Source: Oculatellaceae cyanobacterium bins.114
Lineage (GTDB): Bacteria; Cyanobacteriota; Cyanobacteriia; Elainellales; Elainellaceae
Direction: 5' to 3'
DNA length: 64,000 nt
NCBI GenBank assembly: GCA_033764315.1
Contig: JANRJA010000065.1
Location: 21,794-85,793 of the forward strand
In this document: positions 11,767 to 28,691 of the stretch, one piece after another
Layout of the letters: each line of letters begins with the position of its first letter
How positions within the stretch are numbered: position 1 is the first letter of the stretch
Notes under the pieces: generated by a model
Databases searched by the model: none
What the model was told of the DNA's origin: nothing
Seen by the model: the letters and a program-made list of their open reading frames with translations, nothing else
Translations under genes and position numbers: made by a program

Positions 11767-12380
11767 TGAGATCTAAAACAGAACAAGAACTCTTTTGGGA
11801 AGGGCAGTTTGGTAATGATTATACTCAACGCAATGATGTTTTATGGGAACAACGGCAACCCTTTTTTGCGACTGTTTTAAGCAAAACGTTTGGAGTCAAA
11901 ACTATTTGTGAATTAGGAGCAAATCGGGGACATAACCTTGAAGCGATCGCCCATCTTAGCTCCAATTTCGAGTTAACTGGAGTTGAGCTAAATCCATCTG
12001 CGTTAGCAAGTTTAAAGGCTATCCCAACTGTGAATGCAGTTCATTCATCGATTCAAGAATTTCAGCCAAACCAAACGTTTGATCTGGTTTTCACCTGTGG
12101 TGTCCTAATTCACATCAATCCAGATGATCTACCCCTGGTTTATCAAAAGATTTTTGACCTTTCGAGCCGATATATTCTCATCAATGAATACTTCAACCCT
12201 GCCCCTGTAGAGCTAAGTTATCGCGGGCATTCGGAGAAGCTATTCAAACGAGATTTTGCCAAAGAATTCATTGACCAAACCCAACACGTATCTGTTGTGG
12301 ATTATGGTTTCTTGTGGCAACAAGTTAATCCCTCCTGGGACAATACCACCTGGTTCTTAATGGAGAAAACCGCTGAATGA
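11766..12380 (+). CDS. Pseudaminic acid biosynthesis-associated methyltransferase
   Basis: TEQELFWEGQFGNDY, ELGANRG, GVLIHINP, YRGH..KLFKRDFA. Confidence 0.85.
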   Translation: MRSKTEQELFWEGQFGNDYTQRNDVLWEQRQPFFATVLSKTFGVKTICELGANRGHNLEAIAHLSSNFELTGVELNPSALASLKAIPTVNAVHSSIQEFQPNQTFDLVFTCGVLIHINPDDLPLVYQKIFDLSSRYILINEYFNPAPVELSYRGHSEKLFKRDFAKEFIDQTQHVSVVDYGFLWQQVNPSWDNTTWFLMEKTAE

Positions 12381-16245: not shown

Positions 16246-17271
16246 ATGGTTATTCTGATTCGAGCCGATGCATCAGTGGCAATCGGCACAGGTCATATCA
16301 TGCGCTGTCTGGCTCTGGCACAAGGTTTACAGTCAGCAGGTCATTACCCGATTGTTGTCGCGGCTCAAATCACCCCCAATTTAGTCAGCCGTCTTCAAAC
16401 ATTAGACATTCAGCTCATTAACATTCCGCATGAACTGGGTAGTTTGGATGATGCTCAGGCAACGATCGCCCTGGCTCGTCTACAGCAAACCAGTTGGATG
16501 ATTGTCGATGGCTATCACTTTGGCGCAGAGTATCAACGCTGGATCAAATCGGCAGGCTTGAACCTACTGTTTTTTGATGACTATCAACATGCCACTCATT
16601 ACTATGCGGATCTGGTGCTGAATCAAAATGTCTATGCTCACCCAGAGCTTTATGCTAACCGTGAGCCTGACACTCAACTGCTATTAGGCACTCGCTATGC
16701 CCTACTCAGGCCAGAGTTTTTGCAATGGCAGGGTTGGCAGCGATCGCCCAATCCTGCCGCAAACAAGATTTTGATCACGATGGGAGGGGCTGACCCAGAC
16801 AACGTAACGCTAAAGATTTTGCAAGCCATTCAGCACATCAACTGCAAGTTGGAGGTCATTGTTGTCATTGGAGGCAGCAATCCTCATCGGGAGTCGCTTC
16901 AACAGGTGATTCAATCATCTCGCCACTCGGTTCATTTGAAGCAAAATGTGACCAATATGCCCGAACTGATGGCATGGGCAGATGTGGCGATCGCCGCAGG
17001 GGGCACAACCTCTTGGGAACTCGCCTTCATGGGTCTGCCAACGTTAATGCTGATCTTGGCAGAGAACCAACGGGCGATCGCTGAAAAATTGGGCGAATTA
17101 GGAGTTGTGGTCAACCTGAGGTGGCATCAGGATGTAACAACGGAGGCGATCGCGACGACATTGACTGAGCTTCTTTCTAACCCTGCCAAATGCCGTGACA
17201 TGACGCAGCGAAGCCAAAGCCTGGTAGATGGCAAAGGGGTTGAACGAGTTTTGGAATGTTTGGTGAACTGA
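16246..17271 (+). CDS. pseG: UDP-2,4-diacylamido-2,4,6-trideoxy-altrose hydrolase
   Basis: IRADAS..IGTGHIMRCL, VDGY, LLGTRYALLR, ITMGGADP, AGGTTSWE, AENQ, VDGKG. Confidence 0.9.
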   Translation: MVILIRADASVAIGTGHIMRCLALAQGLQSAGHYPIVVAAQITPNLVSRLQTLDIQLINIPHELGSLDDAQATIALARLQQTSWMIVDGYHFGAEYQRWIKSAGLNLLFFDDYQHATHYYADLVLNQNVYAHPELYANREPDTQLLLGTRYALLRPEFLQWQGWQRSPNPAANKILITMGGADPDNVTLKILQAIQHINCKLEVIVVIGGSNPHRESLQQVIQSSRHSVHLKQNVTNMPELMAWADVAIAAGGTTSWELAFMGLPTLMLILAENQRAIAEKLGELGVVVNLRWHQDVTTEAIATTLTELLSNPAKCRDMTQRSQSLVDGKGVERVLECLVN

Positions 17272-17374
17272 GGTTTATCCAGAGAGACGCGATTAATCGC
17301 GTTTGTCCTACTGATGGTTTGTCCTAACTGAATGGGCTATGGCTACAGTTAGCGATAAGTTAGCTACAACGATA

Positions 17375-17626
17375 TTTTGAGTGTGATTCAGATCACTTAG
17401 AGTTCCTTCGTTGCGGCTCAGAGTCCTTTCATTGCCACTTTGAGTGTGATTCAGATCACTTGGATTCCCTTCGTTGTCTTGTCGAGTTCTTCCGTTGCCG
17501 CTTTGAGTGTGATTCAGATCACTTGGATTCCCTTCGTTGCCGCTCAAAGTATCTTCGTTGGGAGTCAAAGTAACTCCGTTGACACTCTCGGCTGCTTCGA
17601 TGGCATTCAAAGAGGCTTCATTCCCG
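17375..17626. repeat. Array of 12 degenerate 21-nt units with 63-nt higher-order period
   Basis: Units parse at exactly 21 nt; (C/T)TTTGAGTGTGATTCAGATCA recurs at 17375, 17438 and 17501. Confidence 0.9.
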
Positions 17627-17777
17627 CTCGACATCACAAAATTCACTGAGTCTCTATCTCTAATGAGATGTTTTTCCAGTGCTGCTACGGAGTTACTGAT
17701 CTACTAATTAAGGGAATTTCAAGAGATAGGTAACGCACCCATAAACGGTGCATCTCAACATTCCAAGGAGTCAATTC

Positions 17778-18251
17778 ATGACCATTCGTACAATCGATGC
17801 AACCCTATCCTCAACGGATGTTGCAGAGGTTCTCACTGCTCTAGAAACAGTTCGCCAAAAGCTCTCATTTTTAATGGGTTTGACTCCAACTGAACGACGC
17901 CAATTGGCGAAATTAGGACTTAAATCGCAAACCTTTGTCGTTAAAGCTCTTGATGTTGCTACTCAATATTCCAATTTAATGCCTCGTTGCCTTAACATTG
18001 ACGAAGCTCGTCGAGATTTAGCCCTGTTTGAAGCTTTAAACCCTGTCCTACAATCGCTGAGCCAACTACGAGAATTGGTTGAAGATACGCAAATGGTGGC
18101 AGGCAGTGAAGCCTATGCCGCTGCACGAGTTGCCTATAGCTCCATCAAAACGGTTGGTAAAAGCATGGGTCTGGATGAAGTTAAAGATGACCTAGCACAG
18201 CGGTTTCGTAAGACTCGTAAAGTTCAGCCTCAAACTGAACCACAACATTAG
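17778..18251 (+). CDS. Hypothetical alpha-helical protein, function unknown
   Basis: AAGGAG RBS before ATG 17778; ORF with LTPTERRQL and DTQMVAGSEAY motifs and basic C-terminus. Confidence 0.75.
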   Translation: MTIRTIDATLSSTDVAEVLTALETVRQKLSFLMGLTPTERRQLAKLGLKSQTFVVKALDVATQYSNLMPRCLNIDEARRDLALFEALNPVLQSLSQLRELVEDTQMVAGSEAYAAARVAYSSIKTVGKSMGLDEVKDDLAQRFRKTRKVQPQTEPQH

Positions 18252-18276
18252 AGATAGAAGTTAAAGATGAATAGGG

Positions 18277-18312
18277 GCGATCGCTTGATAATGGGGGAGC
18301 GATCGCTTTTTT
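18277..18312 (+). terminator. Possible intrinsic terminator formed by two HIP1 sites
   Basis: GCGATCGCT...AGCGATCGC followed by a T tract, just after the 18251 stop. Confidence 0.4.
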
Positions 18313-18426
18313 GTTCTCATTAACCTGATACCCATTTGAATTGGCTTCGCTGCATATGATTCCGTAAGGGCGTTTCGCGAAACGCCCCTGCCCAAGGATC
18401 TGCCACAATCAAAAATTAAATCGGTA

Positions 18427-18509
18427 TGAGTTTGGGATAAGGATTTTGGCGGTTGAAACCGCTGCTACACGAGCAAAACCAACCTGAGTCGGTTCAGTAA
18501 ATCTTTGAT
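18427..18509 (-). repeat. Partial copy of the MITE/REPIN-like element at 26735-26901, inverted
   Basis: 83 nt matching the reverse complement of 26814-26896 with 7 mismatches (hand alignment). Confidence 0.85.
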
Positions 18510-18571
18510 TTTGGTGGCATTTGGGGCAGCGACTATAATTGAGGGCAGATGTTTGATCCTCAGTGCTTTCT

Positions 18572-20716
18572 ATGACCCAACCGCCCACCTACGGCCCCCA
18601 CAACCCGCACCCGCTGTCAACGCTACGGACGGAACTGGTGTGGGAGGGCAAGTATGACGAGTATGGGCAGCGGCGGGAAGTGGATATTGCTGGGTGCGCC
18701 ATGCCGATGCAGCGAATTGAGAGCATTGATGAACCGCGACGGGCAGCGGCGGCAACGGGGCAGTTGGAGCTGTTTGAACAGCAAAACCCCAAGCAGGATG
18801 ACTTTCGCAATCGGCTGATCTGGGGTGACAACAAGCTGGTGATGGCATCGCTGTTGCAAGAGTTTAAGGGCAAGGTGGATCTGATTTATATTGACCCACC
18901 GTTTGATGTAGGTGCAGATTTTTCGATGAGTGTGGCGATCGGGGATGAGCAGGAAGCGATTGAAAAAGAGCAATCAACATTAGAAATGGTTGCTTATCGA
19001 GATATTTGGGGAAAAGGAACCGATTCTTTTCTGCAAATGATCTATGAACGACTTGTCCTTGCTAGAGAATTACTCACCGACAAAGGTTTGATATTTGTTC
19101 ATATCGGTTGGTTTGTATCTCATCAAGTCAAAGCAATAATTGATGATGTTTTTGGCAATAGCCAGTTCTTAAATCAAATTATTTGGAAAAGGCAAACAGC
19201 CCATAGTGATGTTGGTCAAGGTTCGCAGCATCTTGGACGTATTCATGATGTTATATTTCTGTATTCCAAGTCTGAGAATTTTACATGGAATATGCAGTAC
19301 CAGCCATATTCTGAGGAGTACATAAATTCTTTCTATAAACACATAGAGCCAGAAACAGGACGCAGATATCGACTTAGCGATACAACTGGCCCCGGAGGTG
19401 CTTCAAAGGGTAATCCGCGCTATGAATTCTTAGGAGTAACACGATATTGGCGATTTAAACAAGAACGCATGGAGGAGCTTTATAAACAGGGACGCATAGT
19501 TCAAACTAAACCAGGAACCGTTCCGCAACAAAAACGCTATTTAGATGAGATGTCAGGAGTACCTATCCAGGACCTATGGTTAGATATCAATACTGTCCAG
19601 CCTCAGTCATTAGAAAGACTTGGATATGAAACTCAAAAGCCAGAAACTCTTCTCGAACGAGTGATTTCTCTAGCTTCCAACGAGGGCGATCTGGTGGCAG
19701 ATTTCTTTTGTGGCAGTGGCACGACCGGGGCGGTTGCCGAGCGGTTGGGGCGCAGGTGGCTGATGTGTGACTTGGGGCGGTTTGCCATTCACACGTCGCG
19801 CAAGCGGATGATTGAGCTACAGCGCAAGCTGCACGGTGAGGGCAAACCCTATCGCGCCTTTGATGTCTATAACCTGGGACGCTATGAGCGGCAGTGGTGG
19901 CAAAAGGATCGCTTGCAGGGGGCAGATGCAGAACATCGACGGGTGATTCTGGAGTTCTTCAAAGCGGAGGTGCTGACCAACCCACCCTCTCCCTTGCTGC
20001 ATGGGCGCAAAGCCGGGGCATTTTGTCATGTGGATGGCATCGACTCGATGTTTACCCGCGAAGAAGCGAAACAGGTGGCGCAGGCAACGGCGCAGGCGGG
20101 TGGGCGCGAGTGTTATTGCCTCGCCTGGGAGTTTGAGATGGATTTGCATTTGCTGGTCAATGCCCTGACGCACGAGTTGGGCGTGAAGCTGAAGCTGGTG
20201 CAGATTCCCCGCGAGATTATGGAGAAGAATCGCAAGGCTCCACCGCCGTTTTTGGAAGTCGCTGTCCTCGCCGCCGAACCCGTCTACCGTAAAGCAACGA
20301 CTGAAGTCGTTACTACAAACAAGGCTCGTAGTGAGGACTTTAGACCTCAAACCGTTACTACAAACAAGGCTCGTAGTGAGGACTTTAGTCCTCAAACCCA
20401 CAGCGTAGATATCAAACTCACCCAGTTCCTCCCCTCCCTCGCCGAAGTGCCCACCAAAGAACTGGAAGCGATCAAAGAACGGGCGATCGCAAGCGGTTTT
20501 GATTTTATTGACTTCTGGGCGATCGATTTCCACTGGCAACCGGGCAAACCCTTTACCCACGACTGGCAAGACTACCGGACACGGAAGGATCGATCGCTCA
20601 AAACCATCAGCGATGCGAGCTACACCTATCCTGCTCCGGGCAAATACACCGCCTGCGTCAAAGTCGTCGATACCTTCGGCTGCGACACCTCGATTACCGT
20701 AGAGGTAGAAGTATGA
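18572..20716 (+). CDS. Type III-like R-M DNA methyltransferase (Mod, beta class)
   Basis: NRLIWGDN, IYIDPPF, YETQKPETLLERVI, DFFCGSGTT; upstream of a Res-like helicase. Confidence 0.9.
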   Translation: MTQPPTYGPHNPHPLSTLRTELVWEGKYDEYGQRREVDIAGCAMPMQRIESIDEPRRAAAATGQLELFEQQNPKQDDFRNRLIWGDNKLVMASLLQEFKGKVDLIYIDPPFDVGADFSMSVAIGDEQEAIEKEQSTLEMVAYRDIWGKGTDSFLQMIYERLVLARELLTDKGLIFVHIGWFVSHQVKAIIDDVFGNSQFLNQIIWKRQTAHSDVGQGSQHLGRIHDVIFLYSKSENFTWNMQYQPYSEEYINSFYKHIEPETGRRYRLSDTTGPGGASKGNPRYEFLGVTRYWRFKQERMEELYKQGRIVQTKPGTVPQQKRYLDEMSGVPIQDLWLDINTVQPQSLERLGYETQKPETLLERVISLASNEGDLVADFFCGSGTTGAVAERLGRRWLMCDLGRFAIHTSRKRMIELQRKLHGEGKPYRAFDVYNLGRYERQWWQKDRLQGADAEHRRVILEFFKAEVLTNPPSPLLHGRKAGAFCHVDGIDSMFTREEAKQVAQATAQAGGRECYCLAWEFEMDLHLLVNALTHELGVKLKLVQIPREIMEKNRKAPPPFLEVAVLAAEPVYRKATTEVVTTNKARSEDFRPQTVTTNKARSEDFSPQTHSVDIKLTQFLPSLAEVPTKELEAIKERAIASGFDFIDFWAIDFHWQPGKPFTHDWQDYRTRKDRSLKTISDASYTYPAPGKYTACVKVVDTFGCDTSITVEVEV
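20296..20397. repeat. In-frame REP-like cluster inside mod (3 hairpins, 45-bp tandem duplication)
   Basis: GTAG hairpins at 20296-20316(-), 20328-20349(+), 20373-20394(+); peptide TTEVVTTNKARSEDFRPQTVTTNKARSEDFSPQ. Confidence 0.9.
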
Positions 20717-20926
20717 ACATCGCCCGTAATGAGGTTCGTAGTGAGGACTTTAGTCCTCATGTTCCGGAGAGGTGGAAGTATGAACATCACTCGTAATGAG
20801 GTTCGTAGTGAGGACTTTAGTCCTCATGTTCCGGAGAGGTGGAAGTATGAACATCGCTCGTAATGAGGTTCGTAGTGAGGACTTTAGTCCTCATGTTCCG
20901 GAGAAAACGACTAAAGTCGTTACTAC
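20702..20926. repeat. 3 x 67-bp tandem repeat, each with a GTAG REP, plus one inverted REP
   Basis: Units start at 20702, 20769, 20836; GTAGTGAGGACTTTAGTCCTCA at 20738, 20805, 20872; inverted copy 20906-20926. Confidence 0.92.
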
Positions 20927-20952
20927 GAACGTTGAGGTTGGAGGTACTTGCC

Positions 20953-21687
20953 ATGTATGAGTATCGTCGGCTAACACCAGAGCAACGAGCCGAAATTGTT
21001 CAACAACGCTTAGCTAAGGGCTATCCACCCCACAGCCCACCTCACCCCATTCAGGATCAAGCGTTTTACTTGTTGACAGCAGCTTGCTACGAACATAAAT
21101 GCCATATTAAGAGTGAAGAACGACGCAAACAGCTTTTGGATTTGCTGTTTGAGCAGTTTACAGATCGTGGTGTTGAGCTACGAGGCTGGGTAATCTTGCC
21201 CAATCACTATCATGTGTTGGTTTATTTGGGTGATTTTGATGAGGGCTTAAGCCCTCACTACAAACAAGATAAACACGCTTGTAGTAAAGGCTTTAGCCCT
21301 TATGAACAAATAGGGAAAGTTTTACAACGAGTACACGGCTCTACATCTCGACAGTGGAACTTGGAAGATCACGCAGTCGGTCGGAAAGTTTGGTATGCCT
21401 ATAGCGATCGCGCTATTCGCTCTGAACGGCATTACTACACGACACTAAATTATATTCACTACAACCCAGTTAAACACGAATGGTCAAAATCACCCTATGA
21501 GTGGATTTGTAGTAGTGTGCATTGGTATTTGGAGCAGCAAGGACGTGATTTTTTACGGGATGCTTGGGTGCGCTATCCCATCAAAGACTATGGAAGAGAA
21601 TGGGATGAATTTTTAATGCCTGAACATGCCTCGCTAAAGCGAGAACTACAAACCTATTCAGGAGAAGACCTATGGCAGAGCGAATAA
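20953..21687 (+). CDS. REP-associated tyrosine transposase (RAYT, HUH Y1 / IS200-like)
   Basis: YLLTAAC, WVILPNHYH (HUH), DRAIRSE, NYIHYNPVKH, W..SS; GGAGG RBS before ATG 20953; adjacent GTAG hairpins. Confidence 0.9.
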   Translation: MYEYRRLTPEQRAEIVQQRLAKGYPPHSPPHPIQDQAFYLLTAACYEHKCHIKSEERRKQLLDLLFEQFTDRGVELRGWVILPNHYHVLVYLGDFDEGLSPHYKQDKHACSKGFSPYEQIGKVLQRVHGSTSRQWNLEDHAVGRKVWYAYSDRAIRSERHYYTTLNYIHYNPVKHEWSKSPYEWICSSVHWYLEQQGRDFLRDAWVRYPIKDYGREWDEFLMPEHASLKRELQTYSGEDLWQSE

Positions 21688-21896
21688 AAGTTTGGTTTGA
21701 CCCGGAAGCTGATTTTTTAGAGGTGATTTTCTCGGATGCTCCAGGCTATATGCAGGAAACCGAAAACGATGCCGTTATGGAGCGTGTCGATTTAGAGGGC
21801 AACCTGCTCGGCTTCTCCATTTTGGCGGTTAGTCAGCTTGCCAAATCAAAACCATTGATTGCGGAGTTGTTATCAGAAAGAGGAAGTGCGGCTTAG
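21672..21896 (+). CDS. DUF2283-like small protein
   Basis: KVWFDPEADFLEV...D.EGNLLGFSI pattern. Confidence 0.75.
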   Translation: MAERIKVWFDPEADFLEVIFSDAPGYMQETENDAVMERVDLEGNLLGFSILAVSQLAKSKPLIAELLSERGSAA

Positions 21897-21909
21897 AGGA
21901 GATGATGCA

Positions 21910-22251
21910 GTGGATAAGCTAGAAAACTATCGTCAGATCATTCAAAAGCTTCTGACTGACTATCAGCACTGGGCAATGGGTGCCAATCAGCCTGGAATTC
22001 AGCAATGTGTTGGCTTTGATGAAGAACACGACCACTATTTCTGGTTTCATGTGGGCTGGGATGGTAAGCGGCGAGATTTTGGAGTGACCGTTTACCTCCG
22101 CCTTGAAAACGGCAAAATTTGGATCGAAGAAGACTGGACAAAACAGGGCATCGCCAATGATGTACTAGAAGCTGGAGTCCCTGCCGAAGACATTGTTCTG
22201 GGCTTTCAGCATCCCAGCAAGCGTCCCCTGACAGAATTTGCTATTGCTTAA
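21910..22251 (+). CDS. xisI: XisI family protein
   Basis: DKLENYRQII, FDEEHDHY, GKIWIEEDWT, LEAGVP.EDIVLGF; probable GTG start. Confidence 0.88.
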   Translation: MDKLENYRQIIQKLLTDYQHWAMGANQPGIQQCVGFDEEHDHYFWFHVGWDGKRRDFGVTVYLRLENGKIWIEEDWTKQGIANDVLEAGVPAEDIVLGFQHPSKRPLTEFAIA

Positions 22252-22280
22252 TATTCACAATAATTGCAAGGAGGTAATTC

Positions 22281-22862
22281 GTGTCTACAGCAATCGAATT
22301 AAAAACTGATAAAAAGGTTTGGACAGATGAAGAATTTATGGCATTGCCTAAAGATGGGCATCGCTATGAGATCGTGAACGGAGAATTGGTTGACATGGGA
22401 AATTCAGGAGCATTGCATGGCAATCTTGCTATTATTCTAAGCTCTGCTCTTTTTGCTACTGTTAATGCTCAAAAACTAGGATCTTTGTTTGATTCTAGTA
22501 CCGCCTTCAAGATGAAAAATGATAATAAACGCTCTCCTGACATTTCCTTCTTTGCCAAAGAGCGTTTACAAGGCATGACCGAATTGCCAACTGGCTTCCT
22601 AGAAGGCGCACCTGATCTTGCGGTGGAAATTTTATCTCCTGGCAACACAGTAGAGGAGATAGAAACAAAAATTACTGAGTATTTTGACAATGGTGCCCGC
22701 TTAGTTTGGATGATTAGCCCAACTCAGCACTATGTCCTTGTCTACCGCTGTGCCCAAGAACCCGATCGCCTGCTGAAATCGGTTGATTCTCTGGATGGAG
22801 AAGAGGTGATTCCCGGATTTACGTTCCCCGTGGCTGATCTATTTCAAAAGCTCTCATTCTGA
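22281..22862 (+). CDS. Uma2 family (DUF820) endonuclease-fold protein
   Basis: YEIVNGEL, RSPDISF, APDLAVEILSPGN, Y..NGARLVW. Confidence 0.9.
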   Translation: MSTAIELKTDKKVWTDEEFMALPKDGHRYEIVNGELVDMGNSGALHGNLAIILSSALFATVNAQKLGSLFDSSTAFKMKNDNKRSPDISFFAKERLQGMTELPTGFLEGAPDLAVEILSPGNTVEEIETKITEYFDNGARLVWMISPTQHYVLVYRCAQEPDRLLKSVDSLDGEEVIPGFTFPVADLFQKLSF

Positions 22863-22867
22863 TTTTC

Positions 22868-25800
22868 ATGACCTCCTCCACCCTCAACCCCACCGTTCTC
22901 GAACCCCTGTTTGCCCCCTGGCAGGAACCCAACACCCATCGCGTTCGGGCAGAAAAATCCGGCGACCCCGCTGTAGTGAAACAGGGACGCAGAGCCTCCC
23001 CGATTGAGGTGGTCAATAACCTGCGAGCAGCCGTGCGAGAGTGGCGGGAAGCCTTTTACATCGGAGCCAGCGACACCACGATTCAACTGCTCAACCACTG
23101 GTTTAACCGCGCCCATCGCAAAATCACCCCCGATGGTGAAGAATTTGAGTTTCGTTACTACTTCTGTCAGCGAGAAGCTGTCGAAACCCTGATCTACCTT
23201 AAAGAAGTCCGTCGTATCGAATGCCTATCCCAAATCATTGCCGAATTTGGCGGCGTGAATGCCGAATTGCAGGCATTGGGCATCACCGAAGACGAAGATG
23301 CCTGGAGCCGCTATGCCTTCAAACTGGCAACCGGGGCAGGCAAAACTAAAGTCATGAGCCTGTGCATCGTCTGGAGCTACTTCCACGCCCTGCGAGAATC
23401 TGACTCGGAGATGGCGCGGCATTTTGTCGTGATCGCCCCCAACCTGACCGTTTACGAACGGCTCAAAGACGACTTTGCTAACGGGCGCGTGTTCGATGAA
23501 GACCCCCTGATTCCCCCAGAGTGGCGCGGCGACTGGAATTTATCTGTTGTTCTCCAGGACGAAGCCAGTGGTGCGGCAACGGGTGGAACCCTCTATCTCA
23601 CCAATATCCACCGCCTCTACGACACGTCTAAACGCAAAAAGAACGCTGACGAAGACAATTACACCTGGATGGGACCTGTGGTGTCTAAGTCAAAAGCTCT
23701 CGATACCGGAGCCGCTTTACGAGACAGAATCACCGCCCATCGTCGGGTCATGGTTCTCAACGACGAAGCCCACCACGTCTGGGATTCTGGCTCCGCCTGG
23801 AACGAAGCCATCCGTACCCTGCATGAAACCATCCTGGCTCGCAGCGGTTGCAAGCTGGTGGCACAACTCGACTTTTCCGCCACCCCCAAAGATAACAAGG
23901 GGCTATTGTTCAAACACATCGTTTGCGATACGCCCCTCGGTGAAGCAGTGGATGCCGGAATTGTCAAAACCCCACTAATTGGGCAAGCCAGCCGCAAGCT
24001 GGTCGAACAAGCCGACGACAACGCCGCCTATCGCTGGGAGCAGCATTTACTCTTGGGCTACGAACGCTGGAAAGCCAGCCAAGCCGAATGGCAAGCCAGT
24101 GGCAAAAAGCCGCTCCTGTTCATCATGTGCGATGACACCGATGCCGCCGATCAGATTACTCAACGCTTCAACACCGACCCACTGTTTGAGCAACTCAACG
24201 GCAAAACCATTAACTTGCACACTAACCTGAAGGGCAAGTTGAAAAAAGTGGGACGGGGGAAAGAGGCGCGATATGAATTTGTGGAAGACGAAAAAGCCAT
24301 CAGTGACGATGACCTGAAGGCATTGCGAAAACTCAGCCGAGAACTGGATAGCAACGCCAGTCCTTATTTCTGCATTGTCTCAGTGCTGATGCTGCGGGAA
24401 GGCTGGGACGTGCGAAATGTGACGACGATCGTGCCTCTGCGTCCCTATAGTTCCAAAGCCAACATCCTACCCGAACAAACCCTGGGGCGAGGCTTGCGCC
24501 GCATGACTCCCCCTGGTCAAGCCAATGAACTGGTGACGGTGGTAGAACATCCCGCCTTTGCCAGCCTCTATCAGCAAGAACTGGCACAGGAAGGCTTGCC
24601 CCTGGAAATTGTGGAACTCGATCGCGTTCCGGCTACAACGATTTCTATCTTCCCCGACGAAGTCCACAAGGATGTGAATACCCTGAATATCCAGATTCCC
24701 ACCCTTTCCGCTGGCTTTCGGATTGTTCCCAAGCTGGAAGGCTTAACGATTCAGGATGTGAAAAAAGCCTTTAAACCCTACAAACTGTTGCCGTTGGGGA
24801 TGACTAAAGTCATCACTACGAACGAGTTTGTAGTAACCACTCCAGTGGTTGATGAGACTACTGATGAGACGACTAAAGTCGTCACTACGAAAGAGTTTGT
24901 AGTAACCACTTCAGTGGTTGATGAGACTACTGATGAGACGACTAAAGTCGTCACTACGAACAATACGATCGCGTATGAGGGGCGGCATCTGTTTACGGGG
25001 GAAGTCGTCGAAAAAATGCAGTTGAATTTGCCGCTCCTGGAGTCGGGCATTGGCGCGGTTTCCTACTATGTCAAACAACTGGAAACTATTTGCAAGCTGC
25101 GGGGACTCCATCCCATCCTCGCTCCCCTGATTCAGACCTTTTTAGAAGAGATCTTGTTTGAGCAGAAAACTACATTGTTTGATCCGGTTCTGGTGGCTCG
25201 GTTAGCCGACTCTGATGTGGGCGAACATCTGCGGGCAGTGTTTGTGCCTCTAATTCGCAGCCGCACTACTACCTCAGAAGAACGGCTGATCGTCGAACCG
25301 CCCAAATCTCTCAACGCCTGGAAACCCTTTCAAGTCACCCTCAGTGAACGCCGTCCTGCCCTGGAAGCCGCAAAGACCCTGTTTAACCTCGTCACCTGCA
25401 ACCGAGAGTTAGAAGTAGCCGTAGCAAAGTTTTGCGATCGCGCCCCCGATGTGGCTGCCTTTGCCAAAAATGCCGGATCGCAGTGTTTGCGAGTGGACTA
25501 TCTCGCCAATGGCGATCGCCTCGCCTTCTATACCCCAGACTTCTTCATTCGTACCCTTGATAGTCACTACTACCTGGTCGAAACCAAAGGGCGAGAAGAT
25601 CGGGATGTGCCGTTGAAAGCCAAAGCGGCGATCGCTTGGTGCGAGGCTGCTTCTGGGGTGACGACTGAAGTCGCCACTACAAACCAAAACGTTCGTAGTG
25701 CTGACTTTAGTCAGCAAAAAGCAGGCACATGGCACTATCTCTACATTCCTCAAGGGGTCTTTGAACGGATGGCAGGTGATACCATTGCCGAACTTGCCCG

Positions 25801-26479
25801 CGCCTGTGCCCCCGCCTTACAAAACCTGCTCCAATCTGAGGAGTTTCAAGACTTGCCGCTGTTTGTAAATTTGGGACAGGTGGATGAAGAAGCCTCCGCT
25901 GTCGATAGCCTGATTGATCCAGCGATTCTCAATGCTCTGCCTTCTCGCTATCGCCGCGCCGCCGATCAAGCCGTTATGCTCTATCGCTTTTTTGAAAACA
26001 AAGAGGGCATGAATTATGCTCCTGTCTTTACCGCTCTACTCGGCTCGATTGACGAGGTGGCTAAAGGTTTCCTGGTAAGGCGATTGCAGCCAGAAATGCC
26101 CGTCACCGTGGATAGCCAAAAAGCCTGGTTTACTCCCTATTTGGGCAACGTAGACCGCAAATCAGAGGACTATTACCGCAAACTGGCACAAAATTTGAAA
26201 CGGACGTTAGTCTTCAATAATGGCTTGTCGCTGATTGGTTTGCTGCGATCGTGTCTAGACTATGCGCTGAATGACACCACAAAAATCGGGGGTGTATTCG
26301 AGGCGTTGCAAACTCAGTTACGGGTTCAGGGCGGACGCAAGTTTTTAGAAACTGTCACCCGTATCAACGACTTTCGGAACACCTACATTGCTCACCAGGA
26401 ACAAGAGTTAACCGATAAAAATTTAGCCGAGCAAGAACTCAAAATCTGGATCGAGGCATTGCATATGATTGGAAAATAA
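22868..26479 (+). CDS. Type III-like restriction subunit (SF2 helicase + PD-(D/E)xK nuclease)
   Basis: LATGAGKT, VLNDEAHH, FSATP, LREGWDV, EQTLGRGLR, YTPDF...LVETKG. Confidence 0.9.
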   Translation: MTSSTLNPTVLEPLFAPWQEPNTHRVRAEKSGDPAVVKQGRRASPIEVVNNLRAAVREWREAFYIGASDTTIQLLNHWFNRAHRKITPDGEEFEFRYYFCQREAVETLIYLKEVRRIECLSQIIAEFGGVNAELQALGITEDEDAWSRYAFKLATGAGKTKVMSLCIVWSYFHALRESDSEMARHFVVIAPNLTVYERLKDDFANGRVFDEDPLIPPEWRGDWNLSVVLQDEASGAATGGTLYLTNIHRLYDTSKRKKNADEDNYTWMGPVVSKSKALDTGAALRDRITAHRRVMVLNDEAHHVWDSGSAWNEAIRTLHETILARSGCKLVAQLDFSATPKDNKGLLFKHIVCDTPLGEAVDAGIVKTPLIGQASRKLVEQADDNAAYRWEQHLLLGYERWKASQAEWQASGKKPLLFIMCDDTDAADQITQRFNTDPLFEQLNGKTINLHTNLKGKLKKVGRGKEARYEFVEDEKAISDDDLKALRKLSRELDSNASPYFCIVSVLMLREGWDVRNVTTIVPLRPYSSKANILPEQTLGRGLRRMTPPGQANELVTVVEHPAFASLYQQELAQEGLPLEIVELDRVPATTISIFPDEVHKDVNTLNIQIPTLSAGFRIVPKLEGLTIQDVKKAFKPYKLLPLGMTKVITTNEFVVTTPVVDETTDETTKVVTTKEFVVTTSVVDETTDETTKVVTTNNTIAYEGRHLFTGEVVEKMQLNLPLLESGIGAVSYYVKQLETICKLRGLHPILAPLIQTFLEEILFEQKTTLFDPVLVARLADSDVGEHLRAVFVPLIRSRTTTSEERLIVEPPKSLNAWKPFQVTLSERRPALEAAKTLFNLVTCNRELEVAVAKFCDRAPDVAAFAKNAGSQCLRVDYLANGDRLAFYTPDFFIRTLDSHYYLVETKGREDRDVPLKAKAAIAWCEAASGVTTEVATTNQNVRSADFSQQKAGTWHYLYIPQGVFERMAGDTIAELARACAPALQNLLQSEEFQDLPLFVNLGQVDEEASAVDSLIDPAILNALPSRYRRAADQAVMLYRFFENKEGMNYAPVFTALLGSIDEVAKGFLVRRLQPEMPVTVDSQKAWFTPYLGNVDRKSEDYYRKLAQNLKRTLVFNNGLSLIGLLRSCLDYALNDTTKIGGVFEALQTQLRVQGGRKFLETVTRINDFRNTYIAHQEQELTDKNLAEQELKIWIEALHMIGK
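24799..24957. repeat. In-frame REP-like cluster inside res (5 alternating hairpins, 69-bp period)
   Basis: Hairpins at 24799(-), 24830(+), 24868(-), 24899(+), 24937(-); Thr/Val-rich peptide insert. Confidence 0.92.
25660..25716. repeat. Second in-frame REP pair inside res
   Basis: 25660-25680(-) and GTAGTGCTGACTTTAGTCAGCA at 25695-25716(+). Confidence 0.88.
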
Positions 26480-26734
26480 ATAAGATACGCGATGTGCAAC
26501 TTAGGGGTTTAGATCCCCGGTTGCTCGTTCAGCATCCTCAAATTGGTCTGATTCGCGTCATAGCAACCGGGGAGCTGGGAAGGTCGCACACGGGAAATAA
26601 GATGCAATTGCCAAGCAAGGCAACCAATCGATTTTTGACACCAGTTTTTTGTTTGCGTTGACTGCTTAGAGCGATCGCCCCTTGTTGATTCCAGGCTTAA
26701 AACGTCCTAATGATCATAACTAACGCTATAACTC

Positions 26735-26901
26735 TAACGTCAGTTCGGTTTAAGCAGCCCAGCGAATCAATTCGCGACTACCAGAGCAAAGTCCGCCGTC
26801 GCGGACTACCAACATCAAAGATTGACTGAACCGACGCAAGTCGGTTTTGCTTGTGTAGCAGCGGTTTCAACCGCCAAAATCCTTATCCTGAACTCAGGTT
26901 A
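26735..26901. mobile_element. ~167-bp MITE/REPIN-like non-autonomous element
   Basis: Imperfect TIRs TAACGTCAGTTCGG / CCTGAACTCAGGTTA, TA ends, two opposed GTAG hairpins inside; partial second copy at 18427. Confidence 0.6.
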
Positions 26902-27042
26902 ACGCTATGTAAAGGCAAGACCTGAAACTCAGCCTCAGACCTGTTGCAAAGAGCGATCGCCTTTTTTACCTACTTCCAGAAATACCTTTAAGCTCTGCAA
27001 TGATGGGAAAGTGAATAGAAGCGAGTCCAATTACCCCTAACT

Positions 27043-27635: not shown

Positions 27636-28691
27636 ATGATGCAACAGCCGATTCACATCGCTAATCGAACCGTTGGGCAAGAACACCCTCCGTTCATTAT
27701 TGCGGAGATGTCAGGCAACCATAACCAATCGTTAGAACGGGCATTAGATTTAGTTGAAGCCGCGGCCAAAGCTGGAGCACACGCCCTAAAGTTGCAAACC
27801 TACACGGCTGATACGATTACCCTTGATGTCAAAGAGGGGGAGTTTTTTATTGCTGACCCCAATAGTCTGTGGAAAGGCAACTCTCTGTATCAGCTCTATC
27901 AGCAAGCTTATACCCCCTGGGAGTGGCACAAACCGATCTTAGAGCGATGCCGTGAACTGGGCATGATTGGCTTCAGTACACCTTTTGACGAGACAGCGGT
28001 AGATTTTTTAGAATCCCTGGATGTGCCGCTTTACAAAATCGCCTCGTTTGAGAATGTCCACCTGCCCCTGATTCGCAAAGTGGCACAAACGGGGAAGCCG
28101 ATGATTATCTCAACGGGCATGGCAGCGATCGCCGAACTGGATGAAGCCGTTCGTGCTGCACGAGAGGCAGGATGTCAAGACTTAGTCCTGCTGAAATGTA
28201 CCAGTTCTTATCCCGCAACCCCAGAGAACTCTAATTTGCTCACTATTCCCCATCTACAACAGTTGTTTGACGTGCAGGTGGGGCTATCCGACCACACGAT
28301 GGGCATTGGGGCGGCGATCGCCAGTGTCGCTCTGGGAGCTACCGTGATTGAAAAACACTTTACCTTGAGACGGGCTGACGGTGGGGTAGACTCAGCTTTC
28401 TCAATGGAACCGGAAGAAATGCAACAACTCGTGATAGAGTCCGAAAGAGCATGGCAGGCGTTAGGTAAAGTGCAGTATGGATCCACTGAAGCTGAGAAAA
28501 AATCGATGGTATTCAGGCGATCGCTCTATGTGGCTCAAGACATGAAAGCGGGCGATCGGTTTACCCCGGAAAATTTGCGAGCGGTGCGACCGGGTTTTGG
28601 ATTGCCACCCAAGTACTATGAAATGCTCCTGGGTAGAGCCATTAAACAGGATACCAAGAAAGGAACTCCCCTAAACTGGGGTCTGCTTTAA
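27636..28691 (+). CDS. pseI: Pseudaminic acid synthase
   Basis: IIAEMSGNHNQS, KLQTYT, KIASFE, LKCTSSYP, GLSDHT, IEKHFT, C-terminal SAF domain. Confidence 0.93.
   Translation: MMQQPIHIANRTVGQEHPPFIIAEMSGNHNQSLERALDLVEAAAKAGAHALKLQTYTADTITLDVKEGEFFIADPNSLWKGNSLYQLYQQAYTPWEWHKPILERCRELGMIGFSTPFDETAVDFLESLDVPLYKIASFENVHLPLIRKVAQTGKPMIISTGMAAIAELDEAVRAAREAGCQDLVLLKCTSSYPATPENSNLLTIPHLQQLFDVQVGLSDHTMGIGAAIASVALGATVIEKHFTLRRADGGVDSAFSMEPEEMQQLVIESERAWQALGKVQYGSTEAEKKSMVFRRSLYVAQDMKAGDRFTPENLRAVRPGFGLPPKYYEMLLGRAIKQDTKKGTPLNWGLL

Follow-up and report, generated by a model that had tools for sequence, protein, structure and literature searches.

In a 64,000-nucleotide stretch of the genome of Oculatellaceae cyanobacterium bins.114 (contig JANRJA010000065.1; the whole stretch is hereafter called the window), a tandem array of 21-nt units stands upstream of a gene for a 157-amino-acid helical protein, a member of a family that we designated A1. 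The observations made on this protein, its paralogs, and its relatives in other bacteria support the conclusion that the A1 family and a 21-nt array constitute a two-part module. The literature searched contained no account of such a protein together with a 21-bp array, and the pairing appears to be previously undescribed. Our leading explanation, put forward tentatively and at somewhat less than even odds, is that the array is a phased DNA docking site coated by dimers of the adjacent protein.

Linkage between gene and array was scored as the best self-identity at a lag of 21, 42, or 63 over 84 nt, no more than 800 nt from the gene, with a threshold of 0.55. Six of the seven A1 paralogs in this genome were accompanied by a 21-periodic array, located approximately 300 to 400 nt upstream in three cases and just downstream in the other three. 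The seventh is cut off by the end of its contig, leaving 119 nt of sequence downstream. In species genomes, represented by the best 80 of 379 A1 relatives, 69 loci passed the test, 26 with an upstream and 43 with a downstream array, at median offsets of -301 nt from the start codon and +83 nt past the stop codon, respectively; 3 of the 11 misses had a truncated upstream flank. Acidobacterial loci were among those included, one of which (L068) carries 13.7 copies of its unit. The nearest related genomes contributed 22 passing loci out of 27. In a metagenome set comprising the best 80 of 211 relatives, which belong to a Tannerella-like (Bacteroidota-like) branch, 66 loci passed, and 7 of the 14 misses have less than 210 nt of downstream sequence. 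By comparison, the test was passed by 41 of 1000 random pseudo-genes placed in the genome under study. An initial annotation of the window, made from the sequence alone, had stated that similar proteins often neighbor 21-nt arrays in other bacteria, and these counts bear that statement out.

The same annotation had proposed looking for 21-nt periodicity in the flanks of homologs, which proved to be strongly enriched for it. When the lags were replaced by 20/40/60, 22/44/66, 18/36/54, or 24/48/72, only 3, 2, 0, and 4 of the 80 metagenome loci passed, respectively. The best lag among all values from 5 to 130 was an exact multiple of 21 in 64/80 and 57/80 loci, 42 being the most frequent. This period holds although the sequence of the unit differs from paralog to paralog within the genome, and family arrays consist of 8 to 16 copies. 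Across the whole genome, Tandem Repeats Finder (TRF) returned 130 rows with a period of 21, compared to 26 with a period of 20 and 10 with a period of 22. The rule is a sharp one, in that the period is exactly 21 or a multiple of it in cyanobacteria, Acidobacteria, and the Bacteroidota-like branch.

The position of the array is less constrained than its period. It was found on either side of the gene and in either orientation relative to it, so that the head-to-head arrangement seen in the window does not extend to the family as a rule. Many of the downstream ("down") arrays begin at the A1 stop codon. Of 123 downstream loci, 17 have a terminator-like hairpin between gene and array, and none such was found in the other 106. 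Taken together, the placement on either side, the variable orientation, and the hairpin-separated loci indicate that co-transcription is not required. Among the upstream ("up") loci, a terminator-like site lies between array and gene on the gene strand in 8 of 35 and on the opposite strand in 6 of 35. Apart from the array, no conserved neighbor of the A1 gene was detected in 87 loci or in the 80 metagenome loci.

Layout and conservation of the window array

TRF reported the window array in two rows, one with a period of 63 (2.9 copies at 17376-17560, 83% matches, score 250) and a second with a period of 21 (17532-17587). Laid out in a 21-nt register from 17375, it fills 13 rows with zero indels, in which TTCGTTG and GAGT/AAGT are aligned in columns; the last two to three rows are decayed. 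The majority consensus, CTTAGAGTGCCTTCGTTGCCA, agrees with the approximate one given in the initial annotation, CTYRRAGTNNCTTCRTTGCCR, and the 12 to 13 units were found where that annotation had placed them. Among lags from 5 to 69, the best were 63, 42, and 21, and lag 7 was outside the top five. Cyanobacterial short tandemly repeated repetitive (STRR) sequences are tandem 7-nt repeats; this identity was ruled out by the rank of lag 7 and by a unit that is not made up of three similar heptamers. A search for the unit elsewhere in the same genome returned no orphan copy beyond the window array itself.

The module is present at the same place, beside pseG, in a second genome of the same genus (G001), whose A1 protein is 90% identical. 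Its array is collinear with that of the window unit by unit, with the same 12 to 13 units in the same order and 218 of 272 bases identical without gaps. This collinearity implies that the three-fold (63-nt) super-structure is old, and the description of the 63-nt triplication as recent did not hold for the layout as a whole. Within the genome, only a 39-nt stretch is identical (17438-17476 and 17501-17539). The units of G001 that match these two copies differ from one another, which suggests that gene conversion has recently acted locally on an array that is otherwise old.

Conservation relative to G001 begins exactly at the left edge of the array, and the sequence further left could not be aligned. 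Four-fold degenerate sites served as a reference. Identity at these sites was 39/71 in the A1 gene and 83/129 in pseG (122/200 together), compared to 218/272 in the array (80% versus 55 to 64%; chi-square 20.0, p = 8e-6). The window array is under purifying selection.

The initial annotation had noted that the minus strand is open across the array with a 7-amino-acid period. This is the case in the genome under study, whereas the corresponding frame in G001 contains two in-frame stop codons. The 54 array differences between the two genomes fall on codon positions 1, 2, and 3 of the frame in the proportion 13/26/15, showing no third-position bias, and no open reading frame (ORF) spans the arrays of the paralogs on contigs C196 and C24. 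A heptad peptide gene was rejected on these three grounds. Of the two levels of conservation that the annotation had suggested comparing, the array is conserved as DNA and not as codons; it is non-coding.

The two protein families

The window A1 protein has 81 close homologs, mostly cyanobacterial "hypothetical proteins." In a library clustered at 50% identity, the family comprises 4187 clusters at E <= 0.001 and 2391 at E <= 1e-10. Its neighbors in the protein atlas are unnamed clusters, commonest in Cyanobacteriota and Bacteroidota, with one automatic "chemotaxis" label. Nothing above threshold was obtained with the window protein in Pfam, NCBIfam, PHROGs, or PADLOC, and six family members searched with PADLOC and Pfam gave zero matches. 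The family occurs in 17 of 41 related genomes, in up to seven copies. Among 72,556 plasmids, tblastn found a single matching record, which has no array, and among 50,697 phage records it found none.

The initial annotation had described a helical protein with a basic tail. The AlphaFold2 (AF2) model agrees with this description, being all-helical (predicted local distance difference test [pLDDT], 83.4; predicted template modeling score, 0.60); it includes one helix of 57 residues and ends in a basic tail that is disordered. When two copies were modeled together, the complex scored 0.80 in three runs, compared to 0.00 for the best of three controls. In these runs, which used an alignment of our own making, contacts agreed to at least 96% and the pLDDT of the partner was at least 83. 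In calibration, the mark applied in this test was attained by 20 of 30 proteins whose solved structures are pairs and by 1 of 23 whose solved structures are single chains. The protein is accordingly modeled as a symmetric, intertwined homodimer, in which the long helices would run antiparallel with residue 94 against residue 94. The most conserved motif of the family, AGSEAY, falls in the modeled interface and therefore looks structural rather than catalytic.

Clustering of the ORFs that flank other long 21-nt arrays of the genome yielded a second family, A2. It consists of helical proteins of approximately 140 amino acids, with five paralogs in this genome, each located 143 to 570 nt downstream of a 21-nt (or 84-nt) array. 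An upstream 21-periodic array was found at 23 of 29 A2 loci (20 of 26 outside this genome), compared to 0 of 29 for each of four other lag sets. No homology between A1 and A2 was detected by hhalign (probability, 0.6% and 0.25%). The AF2 architecture of A2 nevertheless resembles that of A1; in A2, an N-terminal helix and a loop are followed by a helix of 54 residues and a basic tail. Among the 41 genomes, 13 contain both families, 4 and 3 contain only one, and 21 contain neither; the one-sided Fisher p value for this co-occurrence, 5e-5, is overstated because the genomes are kin.

Possible functions of the arrays

The arrays come in two styles. The "up" arrays, which occur in a Leptolyngbya-like clade that includes the window, consist of direct repeats. 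Their core, such as AGAA[AT]CGACG, is preserved between genera, whereas the remainder of the unit varies. The "down" arrays, found in a Nostoc-like clade, in Blastocatellia, and in the Bacteroidota-like branch, are in many cases near-palindromic; each unit then has two dyads, equivalent to half-sites approximately 10.5 bp apart. Tested against column-permuted nulls, dyad symmetry was significant (p <= 0.01) for 30 of 45 "down" arrays and 24 of 61 metagenome arrays. The core GTTCnGAAC is common to the cyanobacterial, Blastocatellia, and Bacteroidota-like "down" arrays; it was found in 26 of 46 "down" arrays and 23 of 66 metagenome arrays but in 0 of 29 "up" arrays.

The genome under study contains approximately 25 long intergenic 21-nt arrays, some of them without an A1-type gene nearby. 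These orphan arrays sit in promoter-side, convergent, and tandem intergenic spaces. The position weight matrix similarity between orphan and gene-linked units was 0.51 to 0.76, compared to a null maximum of 0.48. On this basis, the gene-linked array on C155 groups with those on C40 and C172, that of C196 with those on C12 and C41, and that of C50 with those on C8, C84, and relatives.

The initial annotation had left three options for the array, a binding array, a repeat RNA, or a heptad peptide. The peptide fails on the three grounds given above, the RNA retains some probability, and the binding array is now the best supported of the three. According to this explanation, dimers of the A1 protein would recognize a short core in each 21-bp unit. 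Since 21 bp corresponds to two turns of B-DNA, all dimers would be placed on one face of the helix and touch one another, resulting in a cooperative nucleoprotein filament of 8 to 16 dimers beside the gene. A filament could also form on orphan arrays with the same unit elsewhere in the genome. With each paralog having its own unit, a genome would harbor several private protein-array pairs.

We infer that the protein binds the array, that the ligand is DNA rather than RNA, and that a filament is formed, from several lines of evidence. DNA is favored because the two-turn period is invariant across unrelated units and across two protein families. It is also favored because dyad units match a symmetric dimer, because sites occur as orphans, and because arrays lie on either side of the gene, in either orientation, and in some loci behind a hairpin. 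The basic tail of the A1 protein (isoelectric point, 8.76) supports the DNA reading as well, and so do the core shared between genera amid otherwise variable units and the purifying selection on the window array. As to the role of such a filament, our best guess is a local barrier or landmark, acting as a roadblock to transcription or replication or bridging like arrays. The rarity of the family on plasmids, its absence from phage records, and the position of the window module at a boundary would favor a chromosomal landmark or barrier over a function in partition or replication.

It should be noted that several observations weigh against a docking site for dimers. The "up" arrays are strand-skewed: on the gene strand, 16 are A-rich and 5 are T-rich, and the array of the window belongs to the inverted (T-rich) minority. 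Dyad symmetry reached p <= 0.01 in just 3 of 28 "up" arrays, and that of the window was not among them (p = 0.30 overall, column-permuted null); being direct repeats, the "up" arrays are a poorer fit to a symmetric dimer. Unit-specific variants and super-periods of 42, 63, and 84 nt are conserved, which implies that the array is more than a row of interchangeable sites. On the strand richer in G+T, the surplus of G.T over A.C at dyad positions is greater than in other registers. This is the outcome expected of RNA hairpins, although strand composition and strand-biased mutation confound it. A distant A1 member on a Thiodictyon plasmid has no array. Furthermore, searches of Pfam and NCBIfam and the fold searches recognized no DNA-binding domain in A1. 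The best hit of a sequence profile search against PDB had E = 7, a Foldseek search of PDB with the A1 model gave no match at E <= 0.001 (all E >= 1.7), a VIA-wide fold search reached a best Z of 5.8 with generic helical hairpins throughout, and BFVD returned none. The structural follow-up suggested in the initial annotation thus confirmed the helical nature of the protein and produced no fold match.

The G.T excess leads to the strongest rival, which we judge somewhat unlikely. Transcription of the array would yield a repeat RNA, composed of short hairpins or of single-stranded motifs, that binds, holds, or regulates the dimer, in the manner of a type III toxin-antitoxin (TA) system or a protein sponge. 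The layout, a tandem array with a small protein gene, recalls type III loci (PMC3401426). Also in its favor, repeats are paralog-specific, the family is patchy and multi-copy, and some copies or arrays in this genome lie beside restriction-modification genes, including a methylase with a family match. TIR and HEPN/MNT-like neighbors of some copies were read from ORF translations only. The strand skew points the same way, one G001 substitution pairs, by eye, only as U.G on the minus strand, and in many "down" loci the array begins directly at the stop codon, no terminator-like site intervening (106/123). Against an RNA stand the unfixed orientation of the array relative to the gene and the near-equal counts of terminator-like hairpins between array and gene on the two strands of "up" loci. 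RNA folding of the window array was weak (z = -2.3 for the plus strand and -1.2 for the minus strand). No Rfam family matched the window region, and 18 loci gave only sub-threshold chance rows. There is no obvious RNA-based reason for a strict 21-nt period across unrelated units and two families, the A1 model is all-helical, and the known type III repeats have 31 to 62 nt and 1.9 to 5.6 copies (PMC3401426).

Improbable, in our estimation, is that the array is phased structural DNA, curved or serving as a site for another nucleoid or host protein, which is inherited with the gene and whose sequence is not read by the adjacent protein. Many units have an A- or T-tract once per 21 bp, some long arrays stand without an A1-type gene nearby, and the lack of a recognized DNA-binding domain would be explained. 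However, units differ between paralogs yet are kept between orthologs, cores are conserved across genera and phyla, and two particular protein families are linked very tightly to the arrays. In addition, several arrays, such as L030 and L032, have no A-tracts.

A selfish or mobile unit, in which arrays are self-spreading dispersed repeats and the gene rides along or helps them spread, must be considered decidedly improbable. In its favor, arrays with the same unit turn up as orphans at unrelated positions, several of the copies sit on small contigs and at the edges of islands, and transposase-like genes of the type associated with repetitive extragenic palindromic (REP) elements are found near some arrays. 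On the other hand, the window module occupies the same place beside pseG in two species and is collinear unit by unit. Moreover, no transposase or integrase is a conserved neighbor in the 87 and 80 loci, and plasmid and phage records contain next to no matches. Finally, a heptad-repeat peptide partnering the A1 protein is barely credible in view of the evidence given above and of the lack of a family match; the N-E/D-x-S/T flavor shared by the translations of several arrays is due to their shared DNA core.

If the arrays are the docking sites that we favor, they would provide natural orthogonal protein-array pairs, several per genome, that may be useful as tools in the manner of lacO or tetO. 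They may also mark an unrecognized layer of chromosome organization or island insulation. A wider version of the proposal, which we regard as distinctly unlikely, has address-label pairs in several phyla, each paralogous dimer coating only its own gene-linked and orphan 21-bp-phased arrays. The filaments would insulate or silence the borders of variable (defense) islands, or bridge like arrays between the chromosome copies of polyploid filamentous bacteria, as a motor-less relative of centromeres that arose at least twice (A1 and A2). Should the arrays be RNAs instead, they would represent a new kind of repeat-RNA/protein module. In either case, a family of at least 4187 clusters without a name or domain now has a partner that can be read from sequence.

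Setting of the module and known systems

The pair of array and gene forms the left edge of the stretch that separates pseG from pseI, as the initial annotation had indicated (Table 1). To the right of the module lie a DNA methylase (PF01555), a gene resembling REP-associated tyrosine transposases (20863-21687; 78.2 bits, cut-off 80), and a large relative of a restriction endonuclease family (275.7 bits, cut-off 800). Positions 18314-26910 differ wholly in content from the counterpart in G001 (L240:12497-20000), which encodes an AraC regulator, a giant LamG protein of 1482 amino acids, and a subtilase; the flanks are syntenic. The module therefore stands at the edge of an island slot, extending to pseI, whose content is prone to be swapped. 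The A1 module is chromosomal and lies between pseG and pseI in both species.

Two of the seven paralog modules (C50:1564-3831 and window 17778-20716) are followed by a gene for an N6/N4-type DNA methylase, which may be a chance association. Tandem repeats of 45 nt (x2) and 67 nt (x3.1) with a GAGGACTTTAGTCCTC hairpin were noticed at approximately 20308-20398 and 20697-20904. The 45-nt repeats lie inside the 3' part of the methylase ORF and the 67-nt repeats just before the transposase-like gene; the hairpin repeats look like REP elements of that gene.

The A1 gene was described in the initial annotation as having a good ribosome-binding site (RBS) and lying about 150 bp from the array. The distance from array to ATG is 131 nt, of which 92 (70%) are identical in G001, and the RBS was read directly from the sequence. 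The conserved blocks of this spacer could belong to a promoter. A scan for consensus promoters and terminators called nothing in the spacer and nothing useful in the window or three other loci. A leader motif, [AG][GT]GCAT[CT], was found in 22 of 29 "up" loci, compared to 3 of 44 "down" loci, and forms the 3' arm of a hairpin of 5 to 8 bp in 15 of the 22, with arm sequences that vary from locus to locus. The motif may function as a leader hairpin or as an operator. RNAalifold gave no consensus structure for the leader, from a poor alignment that included one mis-set reference. Downstream of the gene, the two GCGATCGC octamers and T6 may form a terminator; the scan, with a loop limit of 8, made no call there.

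Table 1. Coordinates of the array, the A1 gene, and associated features (window positions unless a contig is given)
Feature	Coordinates	Strand	Description
PseG	16246-17271		TIGR03590, 262 bits
Open frame, judged not a gene	17308-17646	-	Heptad-like peptide, 112 aa, GTG start, 7-aa period
21-nt array	17375-17647	.	12-13 gap-free units, 63-nt super-period; direct-repeat type; A-rich strand is minus
Spacer between array and gene	17647-17777	+	Blocks kept across genera (26 "up" loci aligned): TACGGAGTT-type block, GGGAATTT block
Leader element	17735-17754	+	Possible hairpin GCACC-loop-GGTGC overlapping near-invariant GTGCATC, ~30 nt before ATG
Ribosome-binding site	17765-17770	+	AAGGAG, 7 nt before ATG
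A1 gene	17778-18251	+	ORF, 157 aa from ATG; all-helical protein, basic C-terminal tail
Possible terminator	18277-18312	+	Two GCGATCGC octamers 14 nt apart, then T6; read from sequence
PseI	27636-28691		TIGR03586, 511.6 bits
A2 loci L089-L093	C113:51847-52543, C134:40812-41631, C155:32283-33256, C212:7674-8745, C225:199-1226		
Orphan arrays	C40:5377-5592, C172:74237-74353, C12:15190-15512, C41:13796-13967, C8:21073-21317		
Orphan arrays (continued)	C84:14236-14415, C160:303-482, C174:10270-10576, C241:386-658 and 12201-12359		

Among known systems, type III TA loci (toxIN, cptIN, tenpIN) carry arrays of 31- to 62-nt units in 1.9 to 5.6 copies, which precede the toxin gene on its own strand and have a terminator hairpin behind them (PMC3401426). 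The A1 module shares with them a tandem array beside a gene for a protein of about 150 to 170 amino acids, paralog-specific repeats, and a patchy, multi-copy, and often chromosomal distribution (PMC3401426). It differs from these loci in having 21-nt units in 8 to 16 copies, mostly downstream (43/69) and in either orientation, with no consistent terminator between array and gene. The A1 proteins have no match to the ToxN, AbiQ, CptN, or TenpN endoribonuclease families in PADLOC or Pfam, and their model is all-helical. ToxN has a beta-sheet core, and in type III systems the RNA of the array is processed and inhibits the protein by binding to it.

Plasmid centromere modules, such as ParR-parC of R1 and pSK41 and the omega protein of pSM19035, which acts on 7-bp heptads, rely on small dimeric binders. 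Partition modules of this kind, ParG types included, have a ribbon-helix-helix or helix-turn-helix dimer and an NTPase partner encoded in one operon, and they travel on plasmids or phages. Unlike in these modules, no ParA, ParM, or TubZ-type motor is among the conserved neighbors of A1 (87 and 80 loci), neither a ribbon-helix-helix nor a helix-turn-helix domain was detected in A1, and no fold match stands out. The A1 module is chromosomal, with up to seven paralogous pairs per genome plus orphan arrays. As in the centromere modules, a small protein, here a modeled dimer, is encoded beside a tandem array of what are putatively its own sites. The array may be located upstream or downstream, specificity would be private to the pair, and the sites would be phased for a cooperative filament.

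Iterons, typically 17 to 22 bp long, and the met-boxes of MetJ, a tandem operator array, are bound cooperatively by dimers. At iteron-type origins, a Rep initiator with winged-helix domains is encoded beside the iterons on an independent replicon. No Rep family match or origin features were found for the A1 module, which, unlike iterons, is not plasmid-borne. Its array often lies downstream of the gene and is therefore not a simple promoter operator. It nevertheless has in common with iterons and met-boxes direct or dyad repeats, a fixed helical phase, and a conserved core combined with a variable remainder. A dimeric binder beside its own phased array is already known from plasmid centromeres, iterons, and operator arrays.

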